A stretch of DNA of 64,000 nucleotides from the NCBI GenBank assembly GCA_900549285.1, contig URNW01000003.1, positions 7,975 to 71,974 of the forward strand. The letters run 5' to 3'. Shown here piece by piece: positions 7,754 through 53,389 of the stretch. The stretch's first letter is position 1, and every line of letters begins with the position of its first letter. The position numbers were made by a program, and so were the translations under genes. This stretch comes from an uncultured Mycoplasmatota bacterium. GTDB taxonomy: Bacteria; Bacillota_I; Bacilli_A; RF39; UBA660. A model generated the notes under the pieces. It searched no databases. It saw nothing but the letters and a program-made list of their open reading frames with translations, and was not told the origin of the DNA.

Positions 7754-7799
7754 AACTAACACCCTTATTATTATGGAAATAAAAAAAAGAGATATACTC

Positions 7800-18933: not shown

Positions 18934-21244
18934 CTTCTTCACCTCCAAGTATAACTTCATTCTTTTTTTGCTTAAAGCATAAATCTTTAAACTTACAATA
19001 AGTGCAAGCTACATTCTTTTGATCTACAACTTTTGGATTAATTTCAAATTCACCATTCAAAATATGATCAATTACCTTCTCAATAATTTGATCTACTTGA
19101 ATTAAAAGCTCATCCATTTCTTCATTTGATAAAACCTTTGAAGTAGAACTAAGCGATCCATCTTTTTTAAATTTCAAATTTTGAATAATTTTACTATCTT
19201 GATATTCATCATCTATAAGTTCCATCATCCTCTCATCTGCATTAGTAAATCCTTGTAAACGTAAGCGATCCTCTAGTAATTCTTGCACGCTTTTTTTAAA
19301 CTGTATAGCCTCTTTTTTAGCTAAAACTTTTTGAATATAAAACCCAGCTATAAAAGCCTTACAAAATCGATCAGATTTTTTTAAAAGATATAAATAAATA
19401 GGTAATTGAATATGAAGCCCATATTCTAAATCTTTTAAAGTAATATTAGTATTACCTGTTTTATAATCTACTACAGCTAATATTTCCTGATCTAAAAACT
19501 GATCATACATTACTTTATCAATATTACCTTTAAAAGTAATATCTATATCTTTTCTATCTTTATAAACAAAAAACTCTTGTTCAAATAAATAATGTTTTAG
19601 CTTAGAATGACTTTGTTGAACACGGATAACCTCTAATATCTTCGTTAATTCTTTGCCCAATTCTTCTAAATAAAACATTTCCTTAGCATTTAAAACATAC
19701 TCTTTTTCTTTTATAAATTTCATTATTTCTACAGGAATATCAATATCTTTTAATATGCCAAGTTCTAATATATGATGCATAATACTCCCAACTATTGTTT
19801 TAAAGTTTTCTAAAAAAATATCTAAATGTAAAATTTTACTAATATAATAACGAAAAGCACATTCTTGATACATTTCTAAGTTAGTATAAGATAAAACAAA
19901 CGGCTTTTCTATCTTATTCAAAATTAAATTCTTTGAAATACCTGTAAATTGATTATCATATTCTTGATAAGGAATCTCTATACTATTTTGAAATATTCCC
20001 AAATTATCATGAACAATATTAAACTTATATAAATCATCTAAAGCTTCTGCATATTTAATTTCACTATAAAGTCTTGAATAGGAAACAGTATTAAGAAGAA
20101 AAACAGGTTTTACTTCTACTCCTAATTCTTTAACTAAAACAGAAGGATAAAAGACTCCACTAGAACTTCTAAGTTTATAAGTAATTACTAAATTTTTAAT
20201 ATGATGAATAGATTCTAAAAGAATAGTACTTTGATAATGATTATAATCCATAGAAGTATCAAGTCCTAAGGCATCTTTAATTTCATCAGATAAATAATCA
20301 GTATCTCTCTTAACTTTTGGATATTCATTAATATTAAACCCAAGCATAAAAACATAATCTTCTAAATCAAAAAAAGTACCTAAATTTACCTTTGTAACTG
20401 CATCTTCATATGCGGATTCTTGTATTTTTGTATTTTTAAGATCTTCAATAATAAAAGATTTTCTTTCTATCTTATCATCAATCAAAACCGAACGATTAAT
20501 AATCCGCACTAAGTCACTAACGTTTTGATATTTTTCACTTAAATGCAAAATATTTTCTTCAATAGATAACTGATCATAATTTTCTAAAAATTCTTGAGCA
20601 AGCATAGTACCATAATAAGAGTGTTGATTTTCTTTATTAAAAGGAAGATGAAAAATAGAAAAATATCGCATTAAAATATTATCATAATAAGAAGAAGCTA
20701 TGATTTTAATATGAGACAAAGAAATTCCTTTTCTAATTAACTTCATAATTTCTTGTACTACAAATTCTACTTCTTCTTCTAAAGTAGATGCTTCAAATAT
20801 AGATGGCGTAAAAGTATTAGTAGAATTTTGATAAACAATGGGAACATTCAATTTTTTTAAAATCATATTTTCTTCTTTACTAAGAACTGGAAAACCATAA
20901 ACAACAACTTTTTTATTTTGAAAAAAATGGACAAATTGAGAATGATAAATAAGTAAATGATTAGAATCCAGATCTTTTTTCAGCTGATTTAAAAATTTTA
21001 CTTTACCATAATTTAAATCTTTTAAAAAATATAAATGTTCTAAATAAACTTTTGCAACAGAAACACTGACATGATAATTTCTAACAACATATAGTATTGC
21101 TTGTTCATCATAATCAAAAAATAAATTTCGTTTCAAATCTTGAAAAGTAAAGAACTTTATATTAGTAAATAGATGATTTCTGCTATTCTCTCTTAAAATT
21201 TCTTTTTTATTTTCTTCTGTTGTAATAACAATTGTCTGTTCCAT
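18899..21244 (-). CDS. addB: Helicase/nuclease subunit B (AddB/RexB), compact form
   Basis: Lies upstream of and overlaps addA. C-terminal nuclease motif VVDYKTG plus Cys ligands (ECAFRYY ... CTYCKFKDLC), consistent with the AddB Fe-S/nuclease domain. No clear Walker A at the N-terminus. Confidence 0.8.
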   Translation of the reverse strand: MEQTIVITTEENKKEILRENSRNHLFTNIKFFTFQDLKRNLFFDYDEQAILYVVRNYHVSVSVAKVYLEHLYFLKDLNYGKVKFLNQLKKDLDSNHLLIYHSQFVHFFQNKKVVVYGFPVLSKEENMILKKLNVPIVYQNSTNTFTPSIFEASTLEEEVEFVVQEIMKLIRKGISLSHIKIIASSYYDNILMRYFSIFHLPFNKENQHSYYGTMLAQEFLENYDQLSIEENILHLSEKYQNVSDLVRIINRSVLIDDKIERKSFIIEDLKNTKIQESAYEDAVTKVNLGTFFDLEDYVFMLGFNINEYPKVKRDTDYLSDEIKDALGLDTSMDYNHYQSTILLESIHHIKNLVITYKLRSSSGVFYPSVLVKELGVEVKPVFLLNTVSYSRLYSEIKYAEALDDLYKFNIVHDNLGIFQNSIEIPYQEYDNQFTGISKNLILNKIEKPFVLSYTNLEMYQECAFRYYISKILHLDIFLENFKTIVGSIMHHILELGILKDIDIPVEIMKFIKEKEYVLNAKEMFYLEELGKELTKILEVIRVQQSHSKLKHYLFEQEFFVYKDRKDIDITFKGNIDKVMYDQFLDQEILAVVDYKTGNTNITLKDLEYGLHIQLPIYLYLLKKSDRFCKAFIAGFYIQKVLAKKEAIQFKKSVQELLEDRLRLQGFTNADERMMELIDDEYQDSKIIQNLKFKKDGSLSSTSKVLSNEEMDELLIQVDQIIEKVIDHILNGEFEINPKVVDQKNVACTYCKFKDLCFKQKKNEVILGGEEDELDEGTIAGN

Positions 21245-21377: not shown

Positions 21378-21453
21378 GCTCGTTTAGCTCAGTCGGTAGA
21401 GCGCACGGCTGTTAACCGTTAGGTCGTAGGTTCGAGTCCTACAACGAGCGCCA
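21378..21453 (+). tRNA. tRNA-Asn (anticodon GTT) with encoded CCA
   Basis: Cloverleaf read by hand: acceptor GCTCGTT/AACGAGC, D arm TAGCTCAGTCGGTAGAGC, anticodon loop CTGTTAA, T arm GTAGGTTCGAGTCCTAC, discriminator G, CCA. Confidence 0.95.
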
Positions 21454-21668: not shown

Positions 21669-22419
21669 TTACTCATTTTCTTTTAAATTATTAATTGTTT
21701 CTATAGTTAAACCACTAATTTCCACAATTTCATTAATGGCATATCCTTTTTTTAACATACTTTTTGCTATTTCCTTTTTACCTTGCTCAACTCCAAGTTC
21801 ATATCCTTTATCTTCTGCTATCTCTAAATCTCATTTATTTAATTCTTCTTGAGTTTTATCATCTGCTACATATTTGTGTATCCATTCATTTAATTTCACT
21901 AATAACTCATCTCCTCTGGCTATACTAGATCTTTCATTATTGCTTTTTGCCGCTATAAACTTTAGCCATCTTTCTAATTCATTATTAGTATAGCCTAACT
22001 CTCTTGCTTTGTCAATTTGCACAACTTTGACACAAAACTTATCCACTAATATTTTAATATTATGATTTTTCTCACTTGTTAAGTAAAAATTAGTAATTAA
22101 TTTCTAATTTACTTGCTTGTATCCTCATGACATAATATAAACTTTTATCTAATGAATTCATATTAAAATTAGTATATGCTTCTATATTAACGGTTGTATC
22201 ATCAAACTCTACTATAATATCTCCTCTTACATTCTTTTCGCGCACATTCCCCTTTTTAAGAGGACTTTCATAATGAACCTCTAATTTATCTTTTAAATAT
22301 CCCGAAGGATATTCTAAAATTAATTCTAATAATTTTTCTAATTGGCGACGATTATCTTTATCAGCAAAAGTTTCTTTAAAAATTAAATCATGCATTAATG
22401 TGTCGTTATTTCTGTACAT
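21669..22419 (-). pseudogene. Rpn-family (PD-(D/E)XK nuclease / transposase-like) gene disrupted by a frameshift and a nonsense codon
   Basis: Three collinear fragments: MYRNNDTLMHDLIFKETFADKDNRRQL...GDIIVEFDD..NIEAY; then a +1 frame ..ITNFYLTSEKNHNIKILVDKFCVKVVQIDKAREL...ELNK; then an in-frame TGA and DLEIAEDKGYELGVEQGKKEIAKSML... The TGA aligns with the TGG (Trp) of the copy at 33.6 kb. Confidence 0.75.
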
Positions 22420-22631
22420 AGAATACCTCCTTTCAACAGGTGCAATATAACATAAAAGAAAGAGAGAAGCAAATTGCCAATTTAATATAATTCTTAAATC
22501 AAATTGATAAGTTTTACTAGAAAAATCGATATATTTCATATATCAAATCAATATAATTAGTAAAATTTTATTTTTTAATAATTTAATATGGTCCCTCCTA
22601 ATTAAAGAAATCTAAAGTTACATATTTTCAT

Positions 22632-22657
22632 AAAAAAAGAATGACTTCCGTCATCCT
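22632..22657 (-). terminator. Rho-independent terminator ending the Tad-like locus
   Basis: Minus strand reads GGATGAC-GGAA-GTCATTC followed by T8. Confidence 0.65.
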
Positions 22658-22678
22658 TACACAACAATAAATTGTTAA

Positions 22679-23026
22679 TTAATCTGCATTATCCGTATTA
22701 CATTTACTTGGATTGGTGATACACGTAGCACAAACCTCATATTCACCCTCAACTTCAGAAAAGTCATCAACAATTCTAAAAATAGCACCAATTATTGTTG
22801 GAACAAAGAAAATAATAACTCCAGCAATTGCTCTCATAACTAAAGACTTAACAGAATTCTTTATTTCATCATCTTTACTTGCTACAACCGCTTTTCCTAA
22901 ATCTATCATACCAAATATAATGATTACAATTGGAATTACAATTTTAAAAATCCATAAAACCCAACCAATTACTTGCCAAATTTCTGCTAAATCAGTACAA
23001 ATTGAAGGCTTTGCCATAATTAACAT
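22679..23026 (-). CDS. 115-aa two-TM protein with an acidic, Cys-containing C-terminal tail; candidate structural subunit of the locus
   Basis: Two hydrophobic helices and the tail EVEGEYEVCATCITNPSKCNTDNAD. Has its own consensus promoter and an AGGA SD. No Flp (G/xxxxEY) or class III signal motif. Confidence 0.6.
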   Translation of the reverse strand: MLIMAKPSICTDLAEIWQVIGWVLWIFKIVIPIVIIIFGMIDLGKAVVASKDDEIKNSVKSLVMRAIAGVIIFFVPTIIGAIFRIVDDFSEVEGEYEVCATCITNPSKCNTDNAD

Positions 23027-23056
23027 ACAAATTCCTCGCTTTCTAAATCTATATTA

Positions 23057-23085
23057 ATTTTAACTTAACTTATGTATATTGTCAA
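23057..23085 (-). promoter_or_regulatory. Internal consensus promoter in front of the 115-aa gene
   Basis: Minus strand reads TTGACA, 17 nt, TAAAAT, inside the 89-nt gap after the TadC-like gene. Confidence 0.6.
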
Positions 23086-23115
23086 GTTTTTAAGTCTTTT
23101 TCTGTAAAATTTTGT

Positions 23116-23904
23116 CTAAATATTCATTAACAATAATACCGCAAAGATAAGAAGAACCATAACGCCTAAACCAGTTGTAATAAGCATACTCATAGTTTTT
23201 CCTTCCATCTTATCCAAACGATTTTTATATTTTGTTTCTCTTGCTTTTTGTTGTAAATTAGAGATTGTCTTTGAAAAAGCAAGCAATTGCTCCTGTTTTC
23301 TCTCTTGTCTACCTAAACTCAAACGATAAAGTAAACGCATCATTCTCATAGAATCACGAACTGGATATTTTCTAGCAAATTCCATATAAGGTTCAATTGT
23401 ATCATCACCAGCATTAATAGCATTAATAAGCTCTTTTAACCCATCTTTAAAAATATCAGGAGCATCTTCTAAAGATTTACCTATAGCAACAGGGACCGTA
23501 TAGTGTTGAATCAATATCTCAAGTCCCTTTAAATAATAAGGTAACATTGTATCAATTTCATGTAAGTGCCTCTTATAATAATTTTTTAAATTAATATAAT
23601 CTAACTTAAAGAAAGCAAACCCCACAACAACACAAACTAAAGCATAAACATAAGACATATTAGATATCAGTAAACAAAAAACTAAAACGGTTACAATTAA
23701 AGTATTTCGAATTCTTTTATTAAAAAGTAAATCTGGATTTACTGAATCACCATATTTAGCTTTTACATAAAAATCCCAATCACTCTCTTTTAATCTCCTT
23801 AAATACATTTCATTATCAGCAACAAGTTTATTAATACTAATCTTACCACTATAAGTAAGAATAAAGAAAATAATGACAGCTATAACAGCAATTTCTATTT
23901 GCAT
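23116..23904 (-). CDS. T2SSF-like platform protein (TadC-like)
   Basis: 262 aa. TM helices flank a cytoplasmic helical domain (YLKGLEILIQHYTVPVAIGKSLEDAP..F...L..), with a C-terminal TM helix. Sits directly after a second T2SSF-like gene and the ATPase. Confidence 0.55.
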   Translation of the reverse strand: MQIEIAVIAVIIFFILTYSGKISINKLVADNEMYLRRLKESDWDFYVKAKYGDSVNPDLLFNKRIRNTLIVTVLVFCLLISNMSYVYALVCVVVGFAFFKLDYINLKNYYKRHLHEIDTMLPYYLKGLEILIQHYTVPVAIGKSLEDAPDIFKDGLKELINAINAGDDTIEPYMEFARKYPVRDSMRMMRLLYRLSLGRQERKQEQLLAFSKTISNLQQKARETKYKNRLDKMEGKTMSMLITTGLGVMVLLIFAVLLLMNI

Positions 23905-23905
23905 A

Positions 23906-24802
23906 CTACTCTACCCCCACATTATCATTATAATATTTTTCACCACTAAGCAAAAAATAACAATTAATAATTATAATAGCGTGCAAAACAATATGGACAT
24001 ACCACAAATCCAAAAGCTGCAAATAACTTTCTTTACCAAGTAATACCTGCATAACTAATACTAATAAAAAGAGTACTAAAGCAAAGGTAATAAACTTTGT
24101 ATGAAATTGTTTACGATCCATTTGATCACGATAAACGCCCTCAACTAAAGCATCAATATCCATACTCATATTTTCTAAAGCTTCGCCAGAATCTTTAGCT
24201 CCCTCTTTAGTAATTTGTAGGAAAAGTTGATGCATATTTTTAACCATATAATAAGGATATTTTTGATTAAAATATTCTACCGATTCATCTACTGTACCAT
24301 TTTGATAAGACATATTAATCATTATTTTAACATCTTCTAACACAGGATCTTCCAAAATTCCTGAATCTCGAACTCCTTCTAATGATTTTACAAAACTTTG
24401 AGTCGTATTAAATTCCATAATAACATTTGTAGTATATATTTGAATTTGTTCAAATATATACTCACTATAAAGTCTTTTACTTCTTAAAAAGGCTAAATAT
24501 GGAATAAAAGCAATCGCAATCGCAGTATAAATAATAAGAACAATTAAGCTATAAAAATATAAATAAGCAATCGCAGCAGCTAATCCACCAATAACAACAA
24601 TCTGTAAAGCATAATCTTTTACAGTATATTCTTGCTTTAATTCCTTCATTTTAGCACTAATAGTCCGATAACTATATGGAGCATATTTTTCATAAATTAA
24701 ACCAAATTGAGATTTAATAAACTTATAAAAGGTTTCAGTTCCATCATTTCTACGGTATATAATTATAAACATTGCAATAAGAAATATAATAACAAATTCC
24801 AT
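23906..24802 (-). CDS. T2SSF-like platform protein (TadB-like)
   Basis: 298 aa with the same TM-helical domain-TM architecture, 14 nt downstream of the ATPase gene. Confidence 0.55.
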   Translation of the reverse strand: MEFVIIFLIAMFIIIYRRNDGTETFYKFIKSQFGLIYEKYAPYSYRTISAKMKELKQEYTVKDYALQIVVIGGLAAAIAYLYFYSLIVLIIYTAIAIAFIPYLAFLRSKRLYSEYIFEQIQIYTTNVIMEFNTTQSFVKSLEGVRDSGILEDPVLEDVKIMINMSYQNGTVDESVEYFNQKYPYYMVKNMHQLFLQITKEGAKDSGEALENMSMDIDALVEGVYRDQMDRKQFHTKFITFALVLFLLVLVMQVLLGKESYLQLLDLWYVHIVLHAIIIINCYFLLSGEKYYNDNVGVE

Positions 24803-24816
24803 AGCATCCCCTCCTT

Positions 24817-25905
24817 TTATAATGTTTCAATAGCATCTTGGTTTTGAGCATTTAAATGAAACAAATCTTCATCTAGAATAACTCCCTGAATTGCTAAATA
24901 ACTTCTCAAATATTTAGTTGGATTATTTAAAGTAAAATTACCATCTAATGTTTTTTGATAAATTGTATTAACTTGGGGTTTATTATTATCATCAACATAA
25001 AATTCACAAATTTCCATAATTTCTCTTTGAAAACGTCCCAACTTTGCACTCATATATCCTTTAACATATATACCAATCTGTACATATCTATGAATAGTAG
25101 TAACAAACTGTTCTACATCAATATTAGATTCAATTAAACTATACATACGCATTGGAATCAAAGCAGCTTTATCGGAGTGAATAGTAGATATAATATGATG
25201 TCCAGAAGAAATAGAGTTACGTACAGCCATAACAGCCTCAGCACTACGAACCTCAGACAATAATATCCAAATAGGATTTTGTCTCATACAAGTAACTAAA
25301 ACATCAGAATAACTAGCAATGTTATTTGTTTTCATAGCAACAATATCTCTATGAGGAAAGATTCGATCTAAGTGTAACTCTAAAGTATCCTCTATTGTAA
25401 TAATTTTTTCATTCTCTTTTGTTGTACTTGCTAAATATTTAACTAGCTCTGTCTTACCACTACCAGTTTCACCACTAACAATAATATTAGCATGTCCTTG
25501 AACGCAATTAAGAAGAAAATCTAACAAATCAGCACTAACATATTCTTCATTCAACAATTTCTCACGATTAAGTCTAATTTTAGCTGGTGTTTTACGAATA
25601 ACCAAAGCAATTCCATTAGTAGCAATTGAATCATGAACGAAATTAAGACGCAACTCAGTTGATTCAGCATCTAAAAAAGGATGCGCCATATTGAATGTTT
25701 TTCCCATAACATTAGAACATTGGAAAGCTAATTTTTCAATTAAAGCATTATTGATTTCTGGTCTTTCTACTCGATAAACCCCTTTAGATAAGCTTTTCAA
25801 CCATAGCTGACCTCCATTAGTATATGAAATATCAGTTATATCATCAATATCAATAAATTCTTTTAATGGTCCAAAGTCTATTTGTGAGAATATAGCATCA
25901 TTCAT
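24817..25905 (-). CDS. Type II/IV secretion-family ATPase (CpaF/TadA/VirB11-like)
   Basis: Walker A VSGETGSGKTE, Asp box IITIEDTLEL, Walker B RQNPIWILLSEVR, His box GHHIISTIHS. N-terminal ITDISYTNGGQLW resembles the T2SSE N-domain. Confidence 0.85.
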   Translation of the reverse strand: MNDAIFSQIDFGPLKEFIDIDDITDISYTNGGQLWLKSLSKGVYRVERPEINNALIEKLAFQCSNVMGKTFNMAHPFLDAESTELRLNFVHDSIATNGIALVIRKTPAKIRLNREKLLNEEYVSADLLDFLLNCVQGHANIIVSGETGSGKTELVKYLASTTKENEKIITIEDTLELHLDRIFPHRDIVAMKTNNIASYSDVLVTCMRQNPIWILLSEVRSAEAVMAVRNSISSGHHIISTIHSDKAALIPMRMYSLIESNIDVEQFVTTIHRYVQIGIYVKGYMSAKLGRFQREIMEICEFYVDDNNKPQVNTIYQKTLDGNFTLNNPTKYLRSYLAIQGVILDEDLFHLNAQNQDAIETL

Positions 25906-25939
25906 ATAAGCACCTCCTTTTTATTTATTCTTTTTATCT

Positions 25940-26779
25940 TTATTCATTTGTATTTGTATTAGAATTATTATTGTCATTTACAGTACTAGATGTATTAGCA
26001 TCAGGAATTTCTTGAGCATAAGTTCTAATTAAATTTCTCAAATATTGACTAGAAACAGCCGTTTCACCAGGATTACTACTATAAGAAGCATTTCTTGGAA
26101 CTGGTATTAATTCAAGCCCACTAATATAATTAGCTACACTAAGTAATTGAAATAAATCATCAGGGACCGCAAACAATAATTCAGCTGGAGTAGCAACATC
26201 ACTAGTTAAGAATACACTAACTCCTTTATTATCACGAACATCTTTAATCTCAATACTTTCAATCAATTTTCCAAATACTATTTTACCATCTACTGTCATT
26301 TTTACATATAAATCAATATAATCTCCAGGGTACATTGAATTACCATATGTTGTATGAATATCAACAGCCATTGAAAATAAAGTATAACCATCAGGTATAT
26401 TTTTAGTTGGATCATTTGGTGCTGAACTACAAGAAACTACTTGCTCCTGATAAAAAAGAGCTCCAGATGGAACGCTAGTTCCATAAGTAACACACTTCGG
26501 ATCAGTAGTATTTACTATAGCAGACATATCCGTAATCACATTCTTATTATTAGAAATAAAATCTTTAAGAATGGGTTTTGTTGTAATCATTTCCTGAGTA
26601 ATCTCTGATGTAGCAGTAATTGTCTGTTTAGAAACAGGAACATTAACTGTTGAAATTGCTTGATCTACTCGGTAATTATAACCAACATATAAAACAACGA
26701 TTCCTAATAACACACCAAGTATTGTAATAGTATTTTTATTTGACAAAAAACGTTTAATTGTCGTTACTATATTTCCCAT
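25940..26779 (-). CDS. CpaB/RcpC-like (SAF-domain) pilus-assembly protein
   Basis: N-terminal TM helix. VPVSKQTITATSEITQEMI (SAF-like), PDGYTLFSMAVDIHTTYGNSMYPGDYIDLYV and LLFAVPDDLFQLLSVA parallel CpaB motifs. Asn/Ser/Thr-rich tail. Confidence 0.55.
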   Translation of the reverse strand: MGNIVTTIKRFLSNKNTITILGVLLGIVVLYVGYNYRVDQAISTVNVPVSKQTITATSEITQEMITTKPILKDFISNNKNVITDMSAIVNTTDPKCVTYGTSVPSGALFYQEQVVSCSSAPNDPTKNIPDGYTLFSMAVDIHTTYGNSMYPGDYIDLYVKMTVDGKIVFGKLIESIEIKDVRDNKGVSVFLTSDVATPAELLFAVPDDLFQLLSVANYISGLELIPVPRNASYSSNPGETAVSSQYLRNLIRTYAQEIPDANTSSTVNDNNNSNTNTNE

Positions 26780-26788
26780 TTTATCCTC

Positions 26789-27205
26789 CTAATTCTTATT
26801 GTATTCTTCAGCATGGATCTGAATAATAGCATCCACTCTAGAAATGGTATCATAACCATTAGCAGACACAAAATTAGCACCACTATTTGATTTAATTTCC
26901 ACACTTACTTTAGGTGGAGCCTCATATATAGCATAAAAATTAACTTCATAAGTATCATTAGTACCCATTGTTTCTGCAACTCTTCGAATAAATACTTCCA
27001 TAAATTTCTCTTTATCTATTTTAATCTCATTATAATCACGATAATAAGCATAATCAACTGAATCTAACATTGAAGCCTCAGCTATTTCTCTTATCGCATA
27101 ACTATCTTGGGTAGTGTTAGTTGTTATGCCCTGAACTGAGATCATAAGACCAACAATTGCAACACCCATAACAACTAACCAATATCCCCAATATGAACTT
27201 TGCAT
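26789..27205 (-). CDS. 138-aa protein with one N-terminal TM helix; possible minor-pilin/TadE-like role, not demonstrable
   Basis: AAGGGGAG SD. Hydrophobic N-terminus WGYWLVVMGVAIVGLMISV followed by a beta-rich domain. Occupies the position of pseudopilin genes, but no prepilin cleavage motif is present. Confidence 0.5.
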   Translation of the reverse strand: MQSSYWGYWLVVMGVAIVGLMISVQGITTNTTQDSYAIREIAEASMLDSVDYAYYRDYNEIKIDKEKFMEVFIRRVAETMGTNDTYEVNFYAIYEAPPKVSVEIKSNSGANFVSANGYDTISRVDAIIQIHAEEYNKN

Positions 27206-27222
27206 AACTTAACTCCCCTTTC

Positions 27223-30200
27223 CTATTTCCAAGATGGACCAATCATATCTTCTTCAGATATACCTTTATCCCATATAGAGAAATATTCAAAATTGTCATC
27301 ACTTTCTGTTCTATAATGATTACCCATTATTAAACTACGATTATTAACAATTTCTAAATTACTTCCAAATGTTTTACCTTCATAAGAAATCACACCATCT
27401 AATAAATCACTAATGAAAGAACTGTAACAAGCGATTTCTTCATAACCATCTAACGCATAACAAGAAAGTGTACTATTAAGATATCCATTATTATAATCTT
27501 TTTCAGCTTCATCATTATACTCTTTTATAGCTCTAGCAGCACTAGGTGTAATTGTAACACTTAAAATTGGTGTTTCATCATAAATACTATTTCCAGCCTC
27601 TTCTATCTCATCAACTGTAGTAGCAGCCTTATCCGTTGCATCACGATTCCAGTTATATGAATTAGTACCATTAGGGAATAAATTATTTAAAGAAACTACT
27701 CGTTCAATTAATGAAGTTCCAGCATCACTATCATAAATACATCCAGCTCCAATACAATCAGCTATACAGTCATCACCATAACATTCATAATCGCAATTTG
27801 GACCCTTACAATCCGCAAAACATTCATCACCAGTACATTCAGTATCGAAATCACAGATAATTGTATCTTCATCTGTAATACCCATATTAACTAGATAAGC
27901 ACATGCGTATTGAACATTTCCATCTTTATCAACAAAGTCTCCATACTCTTCTTTATTGATAACGGCATTTTTACCACCAATTAATCGACCAAGTTTACCA
28001 TTTTGATCATAGTATTCACCTAAATCAGTCATATTAACGGTATATTTATACATTCCTCTTTCAGTACTTAAACTAACAGGTAATTTATTTTCTAATGCAA
28101 TAGCATCATCACGTTTTTCTCCTTCATCAGCACTTATAATTTCACCACTAGGATAAACATTATAGAACAATGTAGACGGTTTATAATTAGCTTCTATAGT
28201 AGAAGTAACCTTTTTATAACGAGCATCAGATATTTCTTGAGTACTTTCCTTTTTATTTGTTCCACAGCCATCAGTATCACAATAAACATAACTTATAGGA
28301 GTATATTTTGTAGATGAAGAAGTTGATTTAGAACATCTATCATATTGAAGTCCTTTTAATTCTGCTTGAGATTCAGAACCATTACTAGAAACATTAGAAT
28401 TACAATACCACTCAGTAGTATCTTTTCCAGAAACAGAGGCATCCATACTTCCATAATCATTAGCTAAATCTGCCAAATAATCCTCTTCATAATCATAGTA
28501 TACTTCTGGTTCATACTCAATTTCAGTTTCCCATTCTGAGCAAGAATTATACTCTTTAATCGTGTTATCATATTCAGTTTTCAAACGTGATAAATTCCTA
28601 CTTGCAGTATCAATTTTGTTTTGAATTTGCTCTTGGTAATCAGATTTTGTATTAACAGTATCTTTAGAATAAGTCGTAGTAGTACAACATCCACCATCTT
28701 CGTAAATTCTTTCATAAGTTACGCTATCTTCAACATCCTTAGAGCCATAAGTTACTTCCATAATACCAGTGGCAAGTTCAGAGTTACTATATTCTTTAGA
28801 AGCAAATCTACTCTCATTATAATAAGCCCAATTCCGTGCAGTTCCTTCTGTTTTCCAAGTACCATAATAACTCAACCAGTCTGTACAACCACTACAACAA
28901 TGAGGATTTAAAACACCACATGTAGATTCTGAGCAAGCGCTACAAGCGGTTCCATAATCAGTTTCATATATTGTAGGTAATAAAGTAGTCCATTTATTAT
29001 ACTCATTCCACCAGTAGGCCATCTCATATTGAATATCTAACATATCCTTATTATACAAGTCTCTATCAATCGTATTAGTATAACATGTTTTGGTTCCTTC
29101 AACCGCAGCACTAAATGTAAAGTATCTACCTGCATTTACAAGTTTAGCAGTAGGCATAGTCATTGTATAATCTTCTTTACAAGAAACAACACAATACTTA
29201 TTTTGTTCTAATGTATAAGAATTTCCTTCGTCATCCACTGCCCCAGGAACTGAGCCTTTATCAGCAGCGCCTTTATCACCATTACGATCTACCTGTCCAT
29301 CAATTTGGCTAACAAAACAAGCGTAAACTTCATCAGGTCCTTTTATATTAACATCATGATTATCTAATGGAGAAACAATCAAATTATTATCAGCATCACA
29401 GCAATCAAAATTATCAACAACTGTAGGGCATTCTACTTCACAAACTGCTCCAAATTCTTCACAAGCATCATCATCTCCAAATGCACATTCTACTTCAAGT
29501 TCTGCACATTCACCACAATCAGCTTCTAATAATTCTTGACATTCACTACTGCCAATATATCCAGATGCAATACAAGCCTCAATTAAATCATCACAATCAC
29601 AAGCATCAATTAAATAAGTCTCATAAGAACTTGTCCAAGGACTAGGATTTCCATCTGACTCATATACGCCCAAATATCTTTGTGCTTCTTTTTCACCAGA
29701 ATACCAAACAACACCTACATATTTACTATACTCACCAAACTCAGAAGTAGTTGAAGTACCACCAATAGAATATTTAATAGGAGCTTGTCCACACTTTAAT
29801 TTATTTATACTATTATTAGTTGTAGATTCATAGCCTTCAAAATGGACTGTAATTTTAACTGTAGTTACACTATTTTCTTTAAAATATCCTAGTGCAACTA
29901 AATCTTGCCCTAAAATCGATTCGATCTCTCCTCTATTAGTCAAAATTGGTCCATTCTCTATTTCAATAGAAGAAATATAACCAGTTAATCCTTCATATTG
30001 AGTATTATTAGCATAACTAATTCCTGTACCATTTGTACCTTTATTAATAATAAATTTATCATTTAAAGATAGATTAGAAACAACAATAGTATGAACTACA
30101 TCTTTTTGAACAAATACACCATCATTTGTTTCAATCTTTTCAACTTCTGTTGCTTGTGGAAGAACAGAAGTAGTATCAATATCAGTAAGAGAACTTAAAT

Positions 30201-31026
30201 TATTAACATACTCTGTAGCTTTTTGTAATGCACTATAATAATAATTTTTAGCATTCGTCATAGCATTTCCACTCGTAGTGCCAAAATAATATTTTGGATG
30301 AGCACTAAAAGTACTACGTGGAGATAAAGATCCAGCGTTTGCTGCACTAAGAGCACTATTTAAATTATCATAATAAGAAGAATTTTCTGTTAACCAAGTA
30401 TTAACAGCTGTTAAATTAGAATAAAATGCTCCTTTATACTCCAAATTAGCAGTATTATATAAACCAAAAGTATACAAAAGTCCTCTAATTGCTACTAATC
30501 TTGAAAAATAATCTTCAATATTTGAACTAGGAGATCCTAATATTCCATGATCTACTAAAACACTCATAACTGCAACGTCAAAAGCCTTTACTTTAACACT
30601 AGAAGAACTGTCTAATAAAAATCTTTCAGCATATAAAGGATTATATCCTTCATATTGTGCATCTAAACAAAATAAAGCTGATCCAACATATTTATCATAA
30701 TAAGAAGAAAAATAACCATTGTTAACCGTAGAGCCATTAACAACATATTTTATCCCAATATCTCTATAATAGTTAGTAGGATTACCTTTAGCAGTATATC
30801 TGTTATTTGTTCCAACTATAACTTTAGAAGTATTAGTTGCAGATTTTAATTGACTAATAACGCCCTTTGCAGATAATATATTACCATTTTTTGTTGAACG
30901 ACACTGCTCAGAACCATAGCCATCACAACTTGCAGGACTATTTGCAAAAGCGGATGCAGATGGTGCCAAAATAACGAATAATAATAAGGTAATAATAAAC
31001 AAACTAGCATTCTTTAACTTTTTCAT
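27223..31026 (-). CDS. 1267-aa secreted protein with three acidic cysteine clusters, function unknown
   Basis: Signal peptide MKKLKNASLFIITLLLFVILAPSASAFA. One uninterrupted 3.8-kb ORF. Cys clusters at roughly 29385..29610, 28875..28955 and 27735..27860. No LPXTG motif or TM anchor. Confidence 0.8.
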   Translation of the reverse strand: MKKLKNASLFIITLLLFVILAPSASAFANSPASCDGYGSEQCRSTKNGNILSAKGVISQLKSATNTSKVIVGTNNRYTAKGNPTNYYRDIGIKYVVNGSTVNNGYFSSYYDKYVGSALFCLDAQYEGYNPLYAERFLLDSSSSVKVKAFDVAVMSVLVDHGILGSPSSNIEDYFSRLVAIRGLLYTFGLYNTANLEYKGAFYSNLTAVNTWLTENSSYYDNLNSALSAANAGSLSPRSTFSAHPKYYFGTTSGNAMTNAKNYYYSALQKATEYVNNLSSLTDIDTTSVLPQATEVEKIETNDGVFVQKDVVHTIVVSNLSLNDKFIINKGTNGTGISYANNTQYEGLTGYISSIEIENGPILTNRGEIESILGQDLVALGYFKENSVTTVKITVHFEGYESTTNNSINKLKCGQAPIKYSIGGTSTTSEFGEYSKYVGVVWYSGEKEAQRYLGVYESDGNPSPWTSSYETYLIDACDCDDLIEACIASGYIGSSECQELLEADCGECAELEVECAFGDDDACEEFGAVCEVECPTVVDNFDCCDADNNLIVSPLDNHDVNIKGPDEVYACFVSQIDGQVDRNGDKGAADKGSVPGAVDDEGNSYTLEQNKYCVVSCKEDYTMTMPTAKLVNAGRYFTFSAAVEGTKTCYTNTIDRDLYNKDMLDIQYEMAYWWNEYNKWTTLLPTIYETDYGTACSACSESTCGVLNPHCCSGCTDWLSYYGTWKTEGTARNWAYYNESRFASKEYSNSELATGIMEVTYGSKDVEDSVTYERIYEDGGCCTTTTYSKDTVNTKSDYQEQIQNKIDTASRNLSRLKTEYDNTIKEYNSCSEWETEIEYEPEVYYDYEEDYLADLANDYGSMDASVSGKDTTEWYCNSNVSSNGSESQAELKGLQYDRCSKSTSSSTKYTPISYVYCDTDGCGTNKKESTQEISDARYKKVTSTIEANYKPSTLFYNVYPSGEIISADEGEKRDDAIALENKLPVSLSTERGMYKYTVNMTDLGEYYDQNGKLGRLIGGKNAVINKEEYGDFVDKDGNVQYACAYLVNMGITDEDTIICDFDTECTGDECFADCKGPNCDYECYGDDCIADCIGAGCIYDSDAGTSLIERVVSLNNLFPNGTNSYNWNRDATDKAATTVDEIEEAGNSIYDETPILSVTITPSAARAIKEYNDEAEKDYNNGYLNSTLSCYALDGYEEIACYSSFISDLLDGVISYEGKTFGSNLEIVNNRSLIMGNHYRTESDDNFEYFSIWDKGISEEDMIGPSWK

Positions 31027-31793
31027 ACTATCTTACTCCTTTGTTTTCTAATTACCACATACGTAATCAATCCCCCAGCAGCAATTATTATAACTACAAC
31101 TATTATAACAATGACCACATTATCTTTTAAAAACTCAATAAATCCATTCTTTTCTTCTTCTGTAACTGGATTTTTTTCTGTTCCATCAGCATTTAACTTA
31201 CCTGCTTTATATTCTTCAGCTAATCTTAAAAAATCTTCATATGAAATATTATCAATAGAAACAGATAAATATTCATGACATAAATAGAAATCTTCAATCC
31301 CATCACAAATAGCTGTCTCACTATAATTATTATACAGAGGTGTAGTTAAATAAGTCGTATAAAGTTTTGTATCAGGGCAATTAGTAGATGTAGAACTATA
31401 AATCTCTATAGTATAATTAGTACTATAAATATAAACAGCTTCATCAAATGATATTACTCCATCTACTGCATCTGAATAAGTATAAGTAGTAGACTGATTA
31501 GTAGATTGATTAGTAACTACAACATATAAATCTTCTGTAATATTTCTAATGTATATTCTAAAATAAGACTTTTTAGGGACATAATTTTCTTGTTCCTCAT
31601 CTGTTAATCCATCTGGCGGATTAAATCCTTCATCTACAGTAATTTCTTTTTCTATAACTTCATAGTCAACACCCACATTTGCAGCCAAACTATTTAGCTC
31701 ATTTGTCTCAGTAACATCACACGCTGCATAAGCATAAGTACTACTGGCTAAAAACAAAAGTAATGCAAAACTAAAAGCTTTCAATTTCCTCAT
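31023..31793 (-). CDS. Secreted protein with a C-terminal TM anchor, first gene of the Tad-like operon
   Basis: Signal peptide MRKLKAFSFALLLFLASSTYAYA, a Thr/Tyr-rich middle, and C-terminal VVIVIIVVVIIIAAGGLITYVVIRKQRSK. Its stop overlaps the next start by 4 nt. Confidence 0.65.
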   Translation of the reverse strand: MRKLKAFSFALLLFLASSTYAYAACDVTETNELNSLAANVGVDYEVIEKEITVDEGFNPPDGLTDEEQENYVPKKSYFRIYIRNITEDLYVVVTNQSTNQSTTYTYSDAVDGVISFDEAVYIYSTNYTIEIYSSTSTNCPDTKLYTTYLTTPLYNNYSETAICDGIEDFYLCHEYLSVSIDNISYEDFLRLAEEYKAGKLNADGTEKNPVTEEEKNGFIEFLKDNVVIVIIVVVIIIAAGGLITYVVIRKQRSKIV

Positions 31794-31818
31794 AGTATAC
31801 ACCAACCTCATAATTTAA

Positions 31819-31847
31819 ATTATAACATGGCTCAATCATTTTTTCAA
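31819..31847 (-). promoter_or_regulatory. Consensus promoter of the Tad-like operon
   Basis: Minus strand reads TTGAAA, 17 nt, (TGT)TATAAT. Confidence 0.6.
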
Positions 31848-31852
31848 TAAAA

Positions 31853-33450: not shown

Positions 33451-34089
33451 CTAGTCTTTTTCCTTTAACTTTTCTATTTCTTCAACAGATAATCCAGTAT
33501 ATCCAGATATTTTATCTTTTGAAATGCCATCTTTTAACATATTTTTAGCGATTTCCATTCTTTCTAATTCCACTGCATGATTCTTTGCAATTAACATATT
33601 CCATTTGTTTAGTTTCTCTTGTTTCTCTTCATCATTTACATATTTATGTATCCATTCATGTAATTCCATTAATAACTCATCCCCTTTGGCTATCTTTTCT
33701 CGCTCTTTCTCATCTTTTGTTCCAATAAATTTCAACCATTTTTCTAAGACATTTTTAGTATAGTCTAACTCTCTTGCTTTGTCAATTTGCACTACCTTGA
33801 CACAGAAACGATCTTTCCCTAATTTAATCTTTGAATTATGTTCACTAGTAATATAAAAATTCTCTATTACTTCTTCTCCTAAATCCAATTTGCTATTCTC
33901 TATAAAATTGATCTGAATTGTTTTTCCTAATTCATAGTAATGTTCTCCTACTTCTAATTTATTGTGTAAATATCCCACTGGATATTCCAATATTTGTTCT
34001 AATAAAAATTCTAACTGTCTTCTATTATCTGGATTAGCAAATGTTTCTTTAAATAATAAATCATTCATTAACGTATCTTTATATTTCAT
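33451..34089 (-). pseudogene. Rpn-family gene derivative lacking the nuclease core (second copy)
   Basis: The open frame aligns with copy 1 at both ends (MKYKDTLMNDLLFKETFANPDNRRQLE.. and ..DRFCVKVVQIDKARELDYTKN..KWLKFI..GDELLMELHEWIHKYV..KLNKW). The segment equivalent to GDIIVEFDD..NIEAY.. is missing. May still be expressed. Confidence 0.5.
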
Positions 34090-34277
34090 ATATATTTCCC
34101 TTTCCTGCACCCAATATATAAGAAAAAGAAAAAAGAGTCAAATAACCAATTTAATGTCATTCTCTAATCAAATCATATATTTTCATTAATAAAAAAGTGT
34201 TCTTTCATTTATCAAACTAACATATTTAGTAAAAATTAAAAAAAGACAAATTTTCATTCATCTTTTTTAAAATAATT

Positions 34278-49601: not shown

Positions 49602-49614
49602 AATATCCACCTTC

Positions 49615-53337: not shown

Positions 53338-53389
53338 AACATCACCTAAAAAAATTATATGCGATTCTAATATGGGAAATGAATATGGT

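Follow-up and report, generated by a model that had tools for sequence, protein, structure and literature searches.

A chromosomal eight-gene operon of an RF39-type bacterium, putatively the reduced cell-contact half of a Gram-positive type IV secretion locus

The window, a 64-kb stretch of DNA from an uncultured Mycoplasmatota bacterium, contains eight co-directional genes (g1 to g8) on the minus strand. The operon is preceded by a TG-extended promoter, TTGAAA-17-TATAAT (31819..31847, minus strand; scan match 11/12 with TG), and closed by an intrinsic terminator with a 9-bp stem, a 4-nt loop and a T run (22628..22658, stem-loop 22658-22637, minus strand). A second promoter, TTGACA-17-TAAAAT, was located by motif scan ahead of g8 (23057..23085, minus strand). 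Genes, promoters and terminator all lie where the original prediction had placed them, and the tight spacing it described was likewise observed: g1 and g2 overlap by 4 nt, the following gaps measure 17, 9, 34, 14 and 1 nt, and 89 nt precede g8. These gaps contain no open reading frame of at least 20 residues, in agreement with the claim that they are too short to hide a Flp gene. A Shine-Dalgarno sequence could be read upstream of each of the eight genes. Promoter-like matches in general are no more frequent in this AT-rich window than chance predicts (74 found against 86 expected from shuffles); all 34 of the 34 distinct g7-g8 intergenic regions from orthologous loci keep both the g8 motif TTGACA-N17-TAnAAT and the ribosome-binding site GAAAGCGAGGAA. 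The locus is chromosomal, flanked by LysRS, AddAB and further housekeeping genes, and its position is fixed, with the housekeeping flanks conserved across species.

The centre of the operon encodes a motor. The 362-aa product of g5 (24817..25905, minus strand) is a CpaF/VirB11-family secretion ATPase of hexameric type, which matches Pfam T2SSE (E 7e-27) and retains the Walker A, Asp box, Walker B and His box previously claimed for it (GETGSGKT, ITIEDTLEL, WILLSEVR and HHIISTIH, respectively). Its NCBIfam scores, all below cut-off, were 109 bits for VirB11, 98 for TadA-conjugal and 92 for TrbB, while in the PDB the best match was CpaF (2e-16), followed by FlaI (1.6e-14) and VirB11 (1e-13). The 279-aa bitopic protein g4 (25940..26779, minus strand) is CpaB/RcpC-like; from the single protein this label is weak (TIGR03177 E 1.5e-4, RcpC E 0.021), but it is strengthened by a BLASTP match to a Priestia SAF+RcpC protein (1e-13) and by the family profile, which aligned with proteobacterial CpaB at 92.6% probability (E 4.5e-7). 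The polytopic membrane proteins g6 (298 aa; 23906..24802, minus strand) and g7 (262 aa; 23116..23904, minus strand) have no direct match in Pfam or the PDB, and neither Pfam nor NCBIfam identifies them as T2SSF at E<=1, so the T2SSF-like labels originally given to them were a guess, supported only indirectly by transitive, remote homology. Thus g6 aligned by hhalign with Priestia WP_053400277 (93.6% probability, E 2e-7), which in turn matches T2SSF at E 3.4e-5 (24.2 bits, cut-off 25.2) and proteobacterial TadB at 92.6%; through this one intermediate protein g6 is considered remotely TadB-like. The corresponding match for g7 is the 279-aa neighbour in Priestia (96.7% probability), and the g7 family together with its plasmid homologues matched a TadB/TadC profile (90.8%, E 1.2e-6), consistent with a remote TadC-like protein. 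The Tad-like motor set proposed for the locus was recovered: a CpaF/VirB11-family ATPase, a CpaB-like protein and, by remote and transitive homology, two TadB/TadC-like proteins. As had been reported, the operon contains no detectable Flp, TadE/F, TadZ or A24 peptidase, and a Pfam scan found no A24 peptidase among the 38 ORFs of the window.

Two small membrane proteins accompany the motor. The 138-aa product of g3 (26789..27205, minus strand), originally described as a single-TM protein, belongs to DUF5411 (PF17424, E 7.7e-53). In alignments it displays a short leader ending in an invariant SYWG-YW, ~20 hydrophobic residues and a small alpha/beta ectodomain; judged by this N-terminal layout only, g3 and DUF5411 are pilin-like, a second feature that the earlier description had missed. 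AlphaFold2 models of DUF5411, of low confidence (pLDDT 55 and 63), contain a long N-terminal helix and three strands. These low-confidence models gave no significant Foldseek match (best E 0.54), and the DUF5411 profile matched neither TadE nor Flp profiles. In relatives DUF5411 carries C-terminal fusions to Flg_new or, in 19 loci, to an SH3+M15 wall-peptidase module; the latter fit a wall-spanning role.

The 115-aa g8 product (22679..23026, minus strand), a two-helix hairpin with one invariant or near-invariant Cys in its N-terminal tail and three in its C-terminal tail, had been listed as a two-TM protein, a description that overlooked the conservation of its promoter and its likely family. 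It matches the T4SS_pilin family PF18895 at E 4e-4; 37/41 of its orthologues and 26/83 distant relatives also match this family (best E 4e-6), although all scores fall under the Pfam cut-off and noise from 7TM families reaches E 1.8e-5 to 3e-4. The protein is thus VirB2/T4SS_pilin-like on matches that are sub-threshold everywhere. The g8 family comprises 4991 representative clusters at E<=1e-3. Its profile showed no significant match to pLS20 p45 or to the TrbC/VirB2 of pZB18. In relatives g8 paralogues form arrays, a g8 module occurs fused to a signal peptide and ectodomain, and g8 stands immediately ahead of VirB6-like, VirB3-like and VirB4 genes; g8-like modules also serve as anchors of GDSL lipases and C39-like peptidases.

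The first two genes are predicted to encode a translationally coupled, fast-evolving, Cys-rich surface pair, a membrane anchor and a giant secreted protein. The anchor, g1 (31023..31793, possible extension to 31811, minus strand), is a type I membrane protein with a Sec signal peptide, an ectodomain containing four Cys invariant across 73 sequences, a C-terminal TM helix and a basic tail. Its length agrees with the 256 residues given previously, as M7 is the likeliest start: M1 lies only 8 nt past the -10 box. Identity to orthologues ranges from 26 to 86%, and no family match was found in Pfam or NCBIfam. The 1267-aa Sec-secreted g2 product (27223..31026, minus strand) contains 45 Cys and has no match in Pfam, NCBIfam or PDB sequences. 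Its N-terminal two thirds are variable; among 70 sequences the conserved blocks are residues 601-650 and 950-1200, the latter containing an eight-Cys ladder with a spacing of 4-5 residues (residues 1064-1096). The g1-g2 pair is tandemly duplicated in three loci (L003, L016 and L062), and g1-g2(-g3) cassettes are duplicated as units next to one motor in relatives. Judged only by signal peptides, size and rapid divergence, g1 and g2 may act as an adhesin.

Among RF39-type Bacilli related to 'Mycoplasma sp. CAG:776', 32 species-level genomes have the complete eight-gene set, and of the 35 species-level loci of the no-pilin type 32 show all eight genes in order. Nothing else in the operon is as well conserved as the motor, which lies far above the surface pair: in close no-pilin loci (L001-L046) identity to the window is 92-99% for the ATPase, compared with 32-86% for g1 and 29-86% for g2. 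A sister clade has five further genes between g7 and g8, encoding two Flp-sized and two ~160-aa pilin-like proteins and one protein of 330 aa. The two ~80-aa proteins start with an invariant MKEATGELN and the two ~160-aa proteins with MREAIGG, in each case followed by a hydrophobic helix; clade-B DUF5411 has a leader of the same M-K/R-E-x-x-G style (MKE[ST]YWGYWL). The fuller gene set of the relatives appears to be the ancestral state, the Flp-sized pilins having been lost in the window lineage. Since these genes are kept in sister lineages and the motor remains the best conserved part without them, the comparison favours a client that is not a small pilin of the Flp type and probably is one of the retained proteins. 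This preserves part of the original proposal of a non-pilin substrate, but ties the locus to a T4SS and to a pilin-like g3.

Many loci with the five-gene block run on into T4SS genes: a VirB6-like gene with weak matches to Mbov_0396, MMCAP2_0566 and pLS20_p028, a PrgI/VirB3-like gene, a VirB4 divided between two ORFs (NF045975, 349 bits) and wall hydrolases (SpoIID+NlpC/P60 or M23+lysozyme). VirD4, recorded where the available flank extended far enough, belongs to the CD1115 family and was found in L174 and L175 (303 bits, cut-off 250). These continuations contradict the view that the operon is a free-standing novel machine. Several genomes retain fragments of this arrangement. An orphan VirB3 and split VirB4 occur in clade-A genomes, adjoining g8 in L025 and as a separate locus, L172, in the same assembly as L033, and recur in L173 and L176; VirB6, hydrolase and T4CP are absent from the clade-A VirB3/VirB4 loci. 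In L173 the orphan VirB4 has a T4CP in its vicinity and a MobL relaxase ~8 kb away; the VirB4 clusters examined have no relaxase directly beside them. The 64-kb window itself contains no VirB4, VirB6, VirD4/T4CP or relaxase.

The T4SS continuation in relatives, together with the collinearity with pLS20 described below, suggests that the operon is, on balance, the cell-contact half of a Gram-positive T4SS locus of the pLS20/Mycoplasma-ICE class that is fixed in the chromosome, and the most reduced form known. In the mechanism that belongs to this reading, the ATPase would drive the platform so that membrane-embedded subunits, DUF5411 and/or the VirB2-like protein, are pulled from the bilayer and stacked into a short wall-crossing fibre or stalk. 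This structure would carry or expose the g1-g2 anchor and giant protein, a variable adhesin that would mediate contact with other cells or with the host. With the Flp-sized pilins lost and VirB6, hydrolase and VirD4 absent from the locus, DNA transfer by the operon on its own is not expected, and the orphan VirB3 and split VirB4 of related clade genomes may cooperate with it.

Unlikely is a hybrid pilus, in which g8 is assembled into a VirB2-type fibre by the VirB11/TadA-like ATPase, TadB/C-like platform and CpaB-like protein with an orphan VirB3/VirB4 from another locus, while the Tad-like platform replaces the missing VirB6/8/10 scaffold and g1-g2 forms a tip or base adhesin. It would account for the survival of g8, with its strong conserved promoter, and of the motor after loss of the Flp-sized pilins, VirB6, hydrolase and VirD4, and for the retention of VirB3 and split VirB4 in clade-A genomes. 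In Gram-negative bacteria VirB4 and VirB11 are the only requirement for pilus production (PMC12857230). The g8 arrays and signal peptide-ectodomain-g8 fusions recall the VirB2 arrays of Patescibacteria, but the link of g8 to VirB2 is weak, VirB4 is absent from the window, and the g8-like modules on lipases and peptidases fit a plain membrane anchor equally well. To our knowledge, no Gram-positive VirB2-type pilus has been demonstrated experimentally.

The machine for a non-pilin substrate originally proposed, here taken as a T2SS-like secretion or wall-crossing device in which a short DUF5411 pseudopilus acts as a piston that pushes Sec-exported g2 (and g1) through the peptidoglycan with no need for a stable filament or adhesion, is quite unlikely. 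As g1 and g2 have ordinary Sec signal peptides, the wall would be the sole barrier left to them, and the DUF5411 wall-peptidase fusions, the duplication of g1-g2(-g3) cassettes beside a single motor and the lack of a small pilin in the clade are all consistent with such a device. It leaves unexplained, however, the separately promoted and highly conserved g8 and the fact that the locus was ancestrally linked to a T4SS and to genes of pilin-like proteins, and we know of no established case of T2SS-like secretion by a Tad system in Firmicutes.

It is highly unlikely that the operon still works as the mating-pair-formation part of a conjugative or DNA-uptake T4SS with core genes at another place in the genome, a role comparable to that of the thin pilus of R64 or the Tie adhesin of pLS20. 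The nearest plasmid homologues of the ATPase do sit in conjugative plasmids, being the 'VirB11' proteins of the pLS20 family and of Enterococcus plasmids, a pLS20-type VirD4 adjoins the operon in relatives, and L173 offers its relaxase and T4CP. The prediction that the ATPase would not group with conjugative VirB11 inside an ICE thus held in part, as the locus lies between housekeeping genes with no VirB4, VirD4 or relaxase. The fixed position between conserved housekeeping flanks, the gaps in the clade-A VirB3/VirB4 loci and the lack of relaxase and T4CP in the window argue against a mating function. Finally, a decaying, functionless remnant, which the absence of the T4SS half and of five genes that sister lineages have might evoke, is scarcely credible given 8/8 intact ORFs in the 32 genomes, a motor 92-99% identical across the close no-pilin loci, the conserved internal promoter with its ribosome-binding site and a Shine-Dalgarno sequence before every gene of the window operon.

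The preferred reading, a reduced contact half of a T4SS locus, can be set against known systems. The thin pilus of IncI1 R64 (type IVb) shares the concept, as a filament machine beside a T4SS that presents variable PilV adhesins for mating contact; R64, however, is a Gram-negative system with canonical pilins and a peptidase, and homology is limited to the ATPase superfamily. The Tad/Flp (type IVc) systems of Caulobacter (Cpa) and Aggregatibacter (Tad) have in common with the window a CpaF-type ATPase, a CpaB-like protein and a one-domain TadB/TadC-like pair directly after the ATPase. The window operon differs in having no Flp prepilin with a G/XXXXEY site, TadV, TadZ/CpaE or recognizable TadE/F, in platform proteins too divergent for Pfam, and in adding the VirB2-like and giant Cys-rich proteins. 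The order g8, VirB6-like, VirB4 in relatives mirrors Mbov_0395 (pilin-like), Mbov_0396 (TM protein) and Mbov_0397 (VirB4) of the Mycoplasma ICE, and the T4SS of Patescibacteria resembles that of the relatives in being chromosomal, with diverse T4SS_pilin-like gene arrays and no relaxase beside the VirB4 clusters examined. By contrast, a VirB11/TadA-like ATPase with TadB/C-like partners is unreported in either system, and the window lacks their VirB4/VirB6 part.

Operons of related content are not new. The 'membrane machineries' of Roseburia, Ruminococcus and Eubacterium, a purely computational prediction (Miller et al. 2022, PMC9523054), are 8-9-gene operons with CpaF, a PilC/GspF-like protein, DUF5411 and a large surface protein, so a related DUF5411, CpaF and PilC operon had already been predicted in Clostridia. 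These machineries have one 434-aa PilC-like platform, an internalin-like surface protein and other small genes, whereas VirB2-like and CpaB-like genes are unlisted there.

Another close counterpart is the conjugation operon (genes 34-54) of the pLS20 family of Bacillus plasmids, seen also in Enterococcus pZB18 and a Priestia koreensis plasmid. Compared with these plasmids the window locus is chromosomal and lacks VirD4, VirB6, VirB4, relaxase, DUF4320 and Flp-like genes; it has a CpaB-like gene, and its adhesin is unrelated and Cys-rich rather than thioester, SpaA or Ig-like. The g5 ATPase shares ~32-33% identity with pLS20-type ATPases. In pLS20, p36 is DUF5411-like, p37 'VirB11', p39 weakly g7-like, p40 DUF4320 and p45 VirB2-like, although most of genes 34-54, including 36-45, are marked 'unknown' in the published list (PMC8557374); the Priestia order is an Ig-like giant protein, DUF5411, SAF, ParA-like, ATPase, T2SSF, a 279-aa protein and DUF4320. 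The gene order of this family matches the layout of the window and its relatives: a large adhesin, a DUF5411-like protein, a CpaF/VirB11 ATPase, two polytopic proteins of ~250-300 aa, small pilin-like proteins and a VirB2-like hairpin. There follow VirD4 (CD1115), VirB6-like, VirB4 and a wall hydrolase, the same set as is found in relatives of the window.

All eight minus-strand ORFs that the original prediction assigned to an atypical Tad-like operon were recovered at exactly the predicted coordinates. A consensus scan also found the three expression signals claimed for it: the operon promoter (TTGAAA-17-TATAAT with an upstream TG; 31847-31819, minus strand), an internal promoter before the last gene (TTGACA-17-TAAAAT; 23085-23057, minus strand) and a terminator with a 9-bp stem (22658-22637, minus strand). 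The genes, termed g1 to g8 in order, are spaced by a 4-nt overlap, by 17, 9, 34, 14 and 1 nt and finally by 89 nt before g8, and a good Shine-Dalgarno sequence precedes each of the eight. As the first ATG of g1 lies only 8 nt past the −10 box, the start is most likely the seventh codon, giving a product of 256 aa. The window is AT-rich (25-33% G+C in 2-kb windows) and its promoter-like matches are, as a class, not enriched over shuffled sequence (74 observed vs 86 expected), hence such a match alone means little. The internal promoter and ribosome-binding site of g8 are kept in all 34 distinct orthologous g7-g8 intergenic regions. A 114-aa ORF antisense to g8 (22713-23057, plus strand) is almost certainly a shadow ORF and not a gene, as it is hydrophobic and mirrors the g8 frame.

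The ATPase g5 belongs to the T2SSE family (Pfam, 7e-27), and the four motifs attributed to it, GETGSGKT (Walker A), ITIEDTLEL (Asp box), WILLSEVR (Walker B) and HHIISTIH (His box), can all be read in the protein. Its best relatives of solved structure (PDB) are CpaF (2e-16), then FlaI and VirB11. Because the NCBIfam models for VirB11, conjugation-associated TadA and TrbB score about equally, all under their cut-offs, the sequence family of g5 is best described as CpaF/VirB11 and not specifically TadA; score comparisons place the enzyme between VirB11, TrbB and CpaF, nearest a Firmicutes plasmid group. The predicted CpaB-like SAF protein, g4, does carry a CpaB/RcpC feature: alone it is weakly CpaB-like (TIGR03177 at 1.5e-4, under cut-off), its family profile matches proteobacterial CpaB with 92.6% probability (E 4.5e-7), and it is also linked to a SAF+RcpC protein. 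The two T2SSF-like platform proteins of the proposal remain putative. Neither g6 nor g7 has a direct match in Pfam, NCBIfam or PDB, and PDB profile searches with g6, g7 and a T2SSF-like protein from a Priestia plasmid gave no useful match; a likeness to TadB/TadC is reached transitively. The g6 protein matches the Priestia plasmid protein WP_053400277 (93.6% probability; BLASTP 2e-10), which is annotated by PGAP as T2SS F family, scores 24.2 bits against Pfam T2SSF (cut-off 25.2) and matches a TadB profile at 92.6%, while g7 with its plasmid homologues matches a TadB/TadC profile at 90.8%. In view of this chain from g6 through Priestia to TadB, together with the match of the g7 family, the two are taken, by transitive evidence alone, as putative, very divergent TadB/TadC-like proteins. 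A comparison of g6 with g7 for paralogy was not significant.

The components said to be missing from the operon are indeed absent from the sequences searched. There is no Flp match, and no ORF of at least 20 codons lies in the operon gaps, in line with the argument that these are too short to hide an Flp gene. A Pfam scan of the operon and 38 window ORFs found no Peptidase_A24 (TadV/CpaA) prepilin peptidase, nor was an A24 peptidase found in 79 related loci searched with a candidate from Priestia. That candidate, a 172-aa ORF, was itself rejected, since it found no support from NCBIfam or from comparison with TadV. No TadZ/CpaE ParA-like protein was found in the window operon, and the absence of TadE/TadF holds in that the DUF5411 protein g3 has no profile similarity to TadE/TadG proteins. 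Likewise, DUF5411, the small and medium pilin-like families of related loci (described below), p40 and p41 of the conjugative Bacillus plasmid pLS20, and the DUF4320 protein of Priestia gave no signal against profiles of proteobacterial Flp and TadE.

The 138-aa product of g3 is a clear member of DUF5411 (PF17424; 178 bits, cut-off 30). Its start is invariant, S-Y-W-G-Y-W followed by ∼20 hydrophobic residues. AlphaFold2 predicted a long N-terminal helix, then a helix and three strands, at low confidence (mean pLDDT 55 with a 49-sequence alignment and 63 with a 71-sequence alignment), and Foldseek found nothing in the PDB for these models (best E 0.54). The low pLDDT and the empty Foldseek search therefore leave a pilin fold unsupported, and g3 appears pilin-like in its N-terminal layout only. 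C-terminal additions to DUF5411 occur in 19 loci (10001-11464 of L019 and 18 others) and in P0154, P0159, P0162 and P0167, and include a low-complexity linker with SH3_3 and an M15 (VanY-like) wall peptidase, or Listeria-Bacteroides repeats; these modules are reminiscent of modular pilins.

The 115-aa product of g8 is a two-helix hairpin whose N-terminal tail has one invariant or nearly invariant Cys and whose C-terminal tail has three. It scores 20.8 bits against T4SS_pilin (PF18895), under the cut-off of 26.6, and 37 of 41 orthologues match the same model at E≤0.01, also under cut-off. Beside this weak match, its topology and its gene position in relatives fit a T4SS pilin of the VirB2/TrbC type; profile comparisons with pLS20 p45 and with TrbC/VirB2 of the Enterococcus plasmid pZB18 were not significant. 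The family is very large (4991 representative clusters at E≤1e-3), and in many members the hairpin is the C-terminal module of a protein that also has a signal peptide and an ectodomain, which in some cases is enzymatic. The conserved strong promoter, the terminator, the paralogue arrays and the ectodomain fusions would fit a structural subunit and, equally, a plain membrane anchor.

The putative surface pair encoded by g1 and g2 has no match in Pfam or NCBIfam, and g2 also gave no useful PDB profile match. The g1 protein has four invariant Cys and the 1267-aa g2 protein 45, many of them nearly invariant. The N-terminal two thirds of g2 are variable, while residues 601-650 and 950-1200 are conserved. 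At residues 1064-1096 (window 27837-27935) lies a ladder of eight Cys, spaced 5 and 4 residues apart in turn and set among acidic residues (ECTGDECFADCKGPNCDYECYGDDCIADCIGAGC), which is 96-97% conserved across 70 homologues; Cys-rich tails resembling it are also seen on g8 and on the small pilin-like proteins of the sister clade, and such Cys may form disulfides or bind metal. Tandem duplication of g1-g2, with or without g3, is found in several loci.

Conservation was assessed by scanning one genome per species with a DUF5411 alignment, which yielded 79 loci. In 35 of these g7 is followed directly by g8, with a gap of 57-120 nt in all but one, and 32 of the 35 show all eight genes in order; the eight-gene set is thus conserved across relatives. 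Over all loci, the motor is the part most like the window's and the surface pair the part least like it, with identities of 75-99% for the ATPase g5, 64-98% for the platform proteins g6 and g7, 45-96% for the DUF5411 protein g3, 28-91% for g4, 30-81% for g8, 26-86% for g1 and 24-86% for g2. A further 22 of the 79 loci carry extra genes between g7 and g8. In the sister clade there are five: two encode ∼80-aa proteins that combine an invariant MKEATGELN start with a hydrophobic helix and a Cys-rich tail, two encode ∼160-aa proteins that start MREAIGG and continue into a hydrophobic helix, and one encodes a 330-aa soluble protein. The DUF5411 of this clade starts MKE[ST]YWGYWL, a leader of the same style. 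By their layout the ∼80- and ∼160-aa proteins look like pilins; they match no Flp or TadE model or profile, the small ones have no G/XXXXEY motif, and at profile level the 160-aa families do not resemble TadE/TadG proteins. The 330-aa protein was considered as a TadZ and rejected, as Pfam, NCBIfam and PDB gave no support and its similarity to a ParA-like protein from Priestia fell short of significance. The window has none of the five genes; tblastn found no match there to the small pilin-like genes or to the rest of the block. In related plasmid loci, too, the second platform gene is followed by genes for small proteins, DUF4320 in both pLS20 and Priestia and, in pLS20, an Flp-sized protein of 47 aa; the pilin-bearing state is therefore most likely ancestral and the arrangement in the window would reflect a deletion.

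Divergently upstream of g1 in sister-clade locus L067 (3890-5935) lie genes for a membrane-anchored thioredoxin-like CxxC protein, a CPBP/Rce1-like intramembrane protease and a metallophosphoesterase, a trio also found in L049, L054, L056, L057, L060, L061, L081, L082 and L091. A CPBP protease is likewise encoded near the homologous module of Enterococcus pZB18 (L086, 2590-3036). Proteins of this kind could stand in for an A24 peptidase in leader processing and could also form disulfides, and the Cys-rich exported parts together with the thioredoxin-like gene beside sister-clade loci suggest disulfide-stabilised surface structures. The window holds no tblastn match to the thioredoxin or CPBP genes.

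A metagenome scan with the g8 alignment was used to view the genes past g8. At many loci the operon continues past g8 and its paralogues with a polytopic protein of 700-1000 aa (weak matches to Mbov_0396, MMCAP2_0566 and pLS20_p028), then a PrgI/VirB3-like protein of 105 aa, then VirB4 as two ORFs of ∼200 and 594 aa (NF045975; 48 and 349 bits), and then a wall hydrolase (SpoIID with NlpC/P60, or M23 with lysozyme) and a ∼290-aa protein. VirD4 of the CD1115 family follows the T4SS genes in L174 (303 bits, cut-off 250) and L175, the loci whose sequence extended further, and VirB4 lies within the flank of 10 of 37 pilin-type metagenome loci. The VirB4 of RF39-type T4SS loci is consistently split (14106-16536 in L099, 9450-11788 in L174, 9453-11785 in L172) into adjacent or overlapping ORFs, an N-terminal 'TraC-like' part of ∼185-215 aa and the 594-aa P-loop part, the latter 77-96% identical between loci. 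At L099 a g8 that is 61% identical to that of the window directly precedes the T4SS and has no Tad-like genes upstream; at L025, a locus of the window's type, the VirB3-like gene and split VirB4 directly follow g8. The window itself encodes no VirB4, VirD4, VirB6 or relaxase within its 64 kb, no wall hydrolase of the T4SS type, and nothing matched by tblastn with the T4SS genes.

A VirB3/VirB4 cluster can also stand alone. Assembly GCA_947632455.1, which holds a locus of the window's type (L033), has an orphan cluster on another contig, without VirB6, hydrolase or VirD4, and the arrangement recurs in L173 and L176. On L173, an RF39-type contig, a MobL-type relaxase and T4CP (18006-20083) lie ∼8 kb from the orphan genes, which indicates that true mobile elements are present in these genomes as well. 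In two loci of the window's clade, L172 (7027-8232) and L176 (7800-9008), a ComGA/PilB-type ATPase with a zinc-finger motif divergently adjoins the orphan VirB3/VirB4. Judged from this gene, a competence-type pseudopilus is probably present in their clade too, which may imply a prepilin peptidase encoded elsewhere in these genomes.

The nearest proteins are those of 'Mycoplasma sp. CAG:776' and of many uncultured 'Bacilli/Tenericutes' gut MAGs. The wall-less organism first assumed from the name 'Mycoplasma sp.' is ruled out by the presence in the window of SpoIIP (5729-6661), a germination protease (Peptidase_A25; 7025-7762), a sortase-domain protein (37035-38675) and a SpoVB/MurJ-like flippase (39713-41356); the organism is clearly not wall-less and may sporulate. 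The operon lies among chromosomal genes. Downstream of g8, at lower coordinates, are a tRNA-Asn gene (21378-21453), which sits just past the operon between a split Rpn gene and AddB, then AddB, a UvrD-type AddA helicase (assigned by synteny with the related locus L001), an HD-domain protein, LemA, DUF2207, a transglutaminase-like protein, the germination protease, SpoIIP, an ABC-F protein, ZnuA and SRP54. The flank upstream of g1 holds a DcuC-like permease, LysRS, the sortase-domain protein, a TrmB-like methyltransferase, the SpoVB/MurJ-like protein, CinA, TyrRS and an M29 peptidase. Two Rpn/PD-(D/E)XK (PDDEXK_2) recombination-nuclease-like genes (21831-22539 and 33451-34110) form direct repeats (271 nt at 73%, 11.8 kb apart) on either side of the DcuC-like gene and the operon, a bracketing repeated in CAG:776-like contigs. 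The copy downstream of the operon is broken into two ORFs and is probably a pseudogene. The window also contains a tmRNA gene (54877-55245; tag DKNENSFASNAYAFA), a 615-aa protein with three Listeria-Bacteroides (Flg_new) repeats (45983-47830) and sizeable ORFs of 677, 301, 210, 279 and 275 aa without a Pfam family (7800-9833, 48705-50247, 52558-53397 and 54004-54831).

Homology (with several links sub-threshold or transitive) and synteny identify the window operon as part of a Gram-positive T4SS locus of the pLS20/Mycoplasma-ICE class, the part that encodes the putative adhesin, the Tad-like motor and the VirB2-like protein. The locus is fixed in the chromosome of this bacterial order and, in the window's lineage, appears reduced, the small pilin-like genes having been lost and the T4SS core being no longer adjacent. 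This lineage offers a natural deletion experiment: the small pilins are gone, as are the DNA-transfer genes from the locus, and what persists under strong constraint is the motor together with DUF5411, the VirB2-like protein and the putative adhesin pair. Their retention narrows what the motor acts on. Since the motor is the best conserved part in exactly the genomes without small pilins, its client is probably among the remaining proteins, DUF5411, g8, g1 and g2, assuming that no small pilin genes lie elsewhere. In the simplest mechanism, the ATPase-driven platform would extract membrane-anchored subunits, these would build a short wall-spanning fibre or stalk, and the fibre or stalk would present the g1-g2 complex as a variable adhesin. 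Such a fast-evolving giant surface protein may matter for the attachment of reduced-genome gut bacteria to hosts or partner cells. The boldest version of this scheme is improbable as a whole: in RF39 gut Bacilli and, by homology, pLS20-type plasmids, a Tad-type platform (TadB/C-like proteins, VirB11/TadA-like ATPase and CpaB-like protein), possibly with VirB3/VirB4, would polymerise the VirB2-like hairpin into a surface fibre displaying a hypervariable Cys-rich adhesin. This would amount to a Gram-positive 'conjugative-type' pilus that became domesticated for adhesion once the DNA-transfer genes and Flp-sized pilins had been lost.

Set against canonical Tad systems the operon is missing Flp, TadV, TadZ and TadE/F, and set against a T4SS core it is missing VirB4, VirD4 and VirB6; judged by its genes, it would work like part of both. 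According to a recent T4SS review (PMC12857230), the T4SSs of Gram-positive bacteria 'universally lack VirB11 homologs', and no monoderms other than Patescibacteria have the potential to make conjugative pili. A T4SS study (10.1101/2025.01.22.634366) likewise states that major pilin (virB2) genes are missing from the Gram-positive T4SS classes, and it describes VirB2 arrays in Patescibacteria. The family described here comprises genes for a VirB11/TadA-like ATPase, TadB/C-like partners and VirB2-like proteins wired into Gram-positive T4SS loci, found both on pLS20-family plasmids and in the chromosomes of a gut order that is widespread and uncultured. Two published observations touch on it: in a paper on the pLS20 family (PMC8557374) genes 36 and 38-47 are entered as unknown, and gene 37 is remarked on as a homologue of VirB11 that had not been expected, and an NLP study predicted an uncharacterised operon of CpaF, PilC, DUF5411 and an internalin-like protein in Clostridia (PMC9523054). 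Literature searches found nothing on RF39 with a T4SS or Tad system, nor on a pLS20 pilus.

The best plasmid matches of g5 (∼32% identity) are 'CpaF/VirB11 family' proteins of pLS20-family Bacillus plasmids and of Enterococcus pZB18, with values of e-39 to e-55 against pLS20-type ATPases in a small database. The clearest Tad-like version is that of the Priestia plasmid, which encodes an Ig-like giant protein, DUF5411, SAF+RcpC, a ParA-like protein (weak AAA_31/ParA-like match), the ATPase, T2SSF, a 279-aa protein and DUF4320. pLS20-type neighbourhoods are collinear with the RF39 locus, running from an adhesin (thioester Tie or SpaA-type) through the DUF5411-like p36 (E 1.4e-5 with DUF5411), the ATPase p37 and the polytopic p38 and p39 (g7 vs p39 is weak, BLAST E 0.02 and hhalign 21%) to the DUF4320 protein p40, the 47-aa proteins p41, the VirB2-like p45 (Mbov_0395 family, E 1.7e-4), and VirD4 (CD1115) with the pLS20_p028 protein. 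The main value of the window operon lies in its natural 'minimal' configuration and in this pLS20 homologue, in which the question is directly testable because pLS20 in Bacillus subtilis is genetically tractable. The accessory module of pLS20 genes 34-39, comprising adhesin, DUF5411, VirB11-like ATPase and two polytopic proteins, occurs in the same order in the window.
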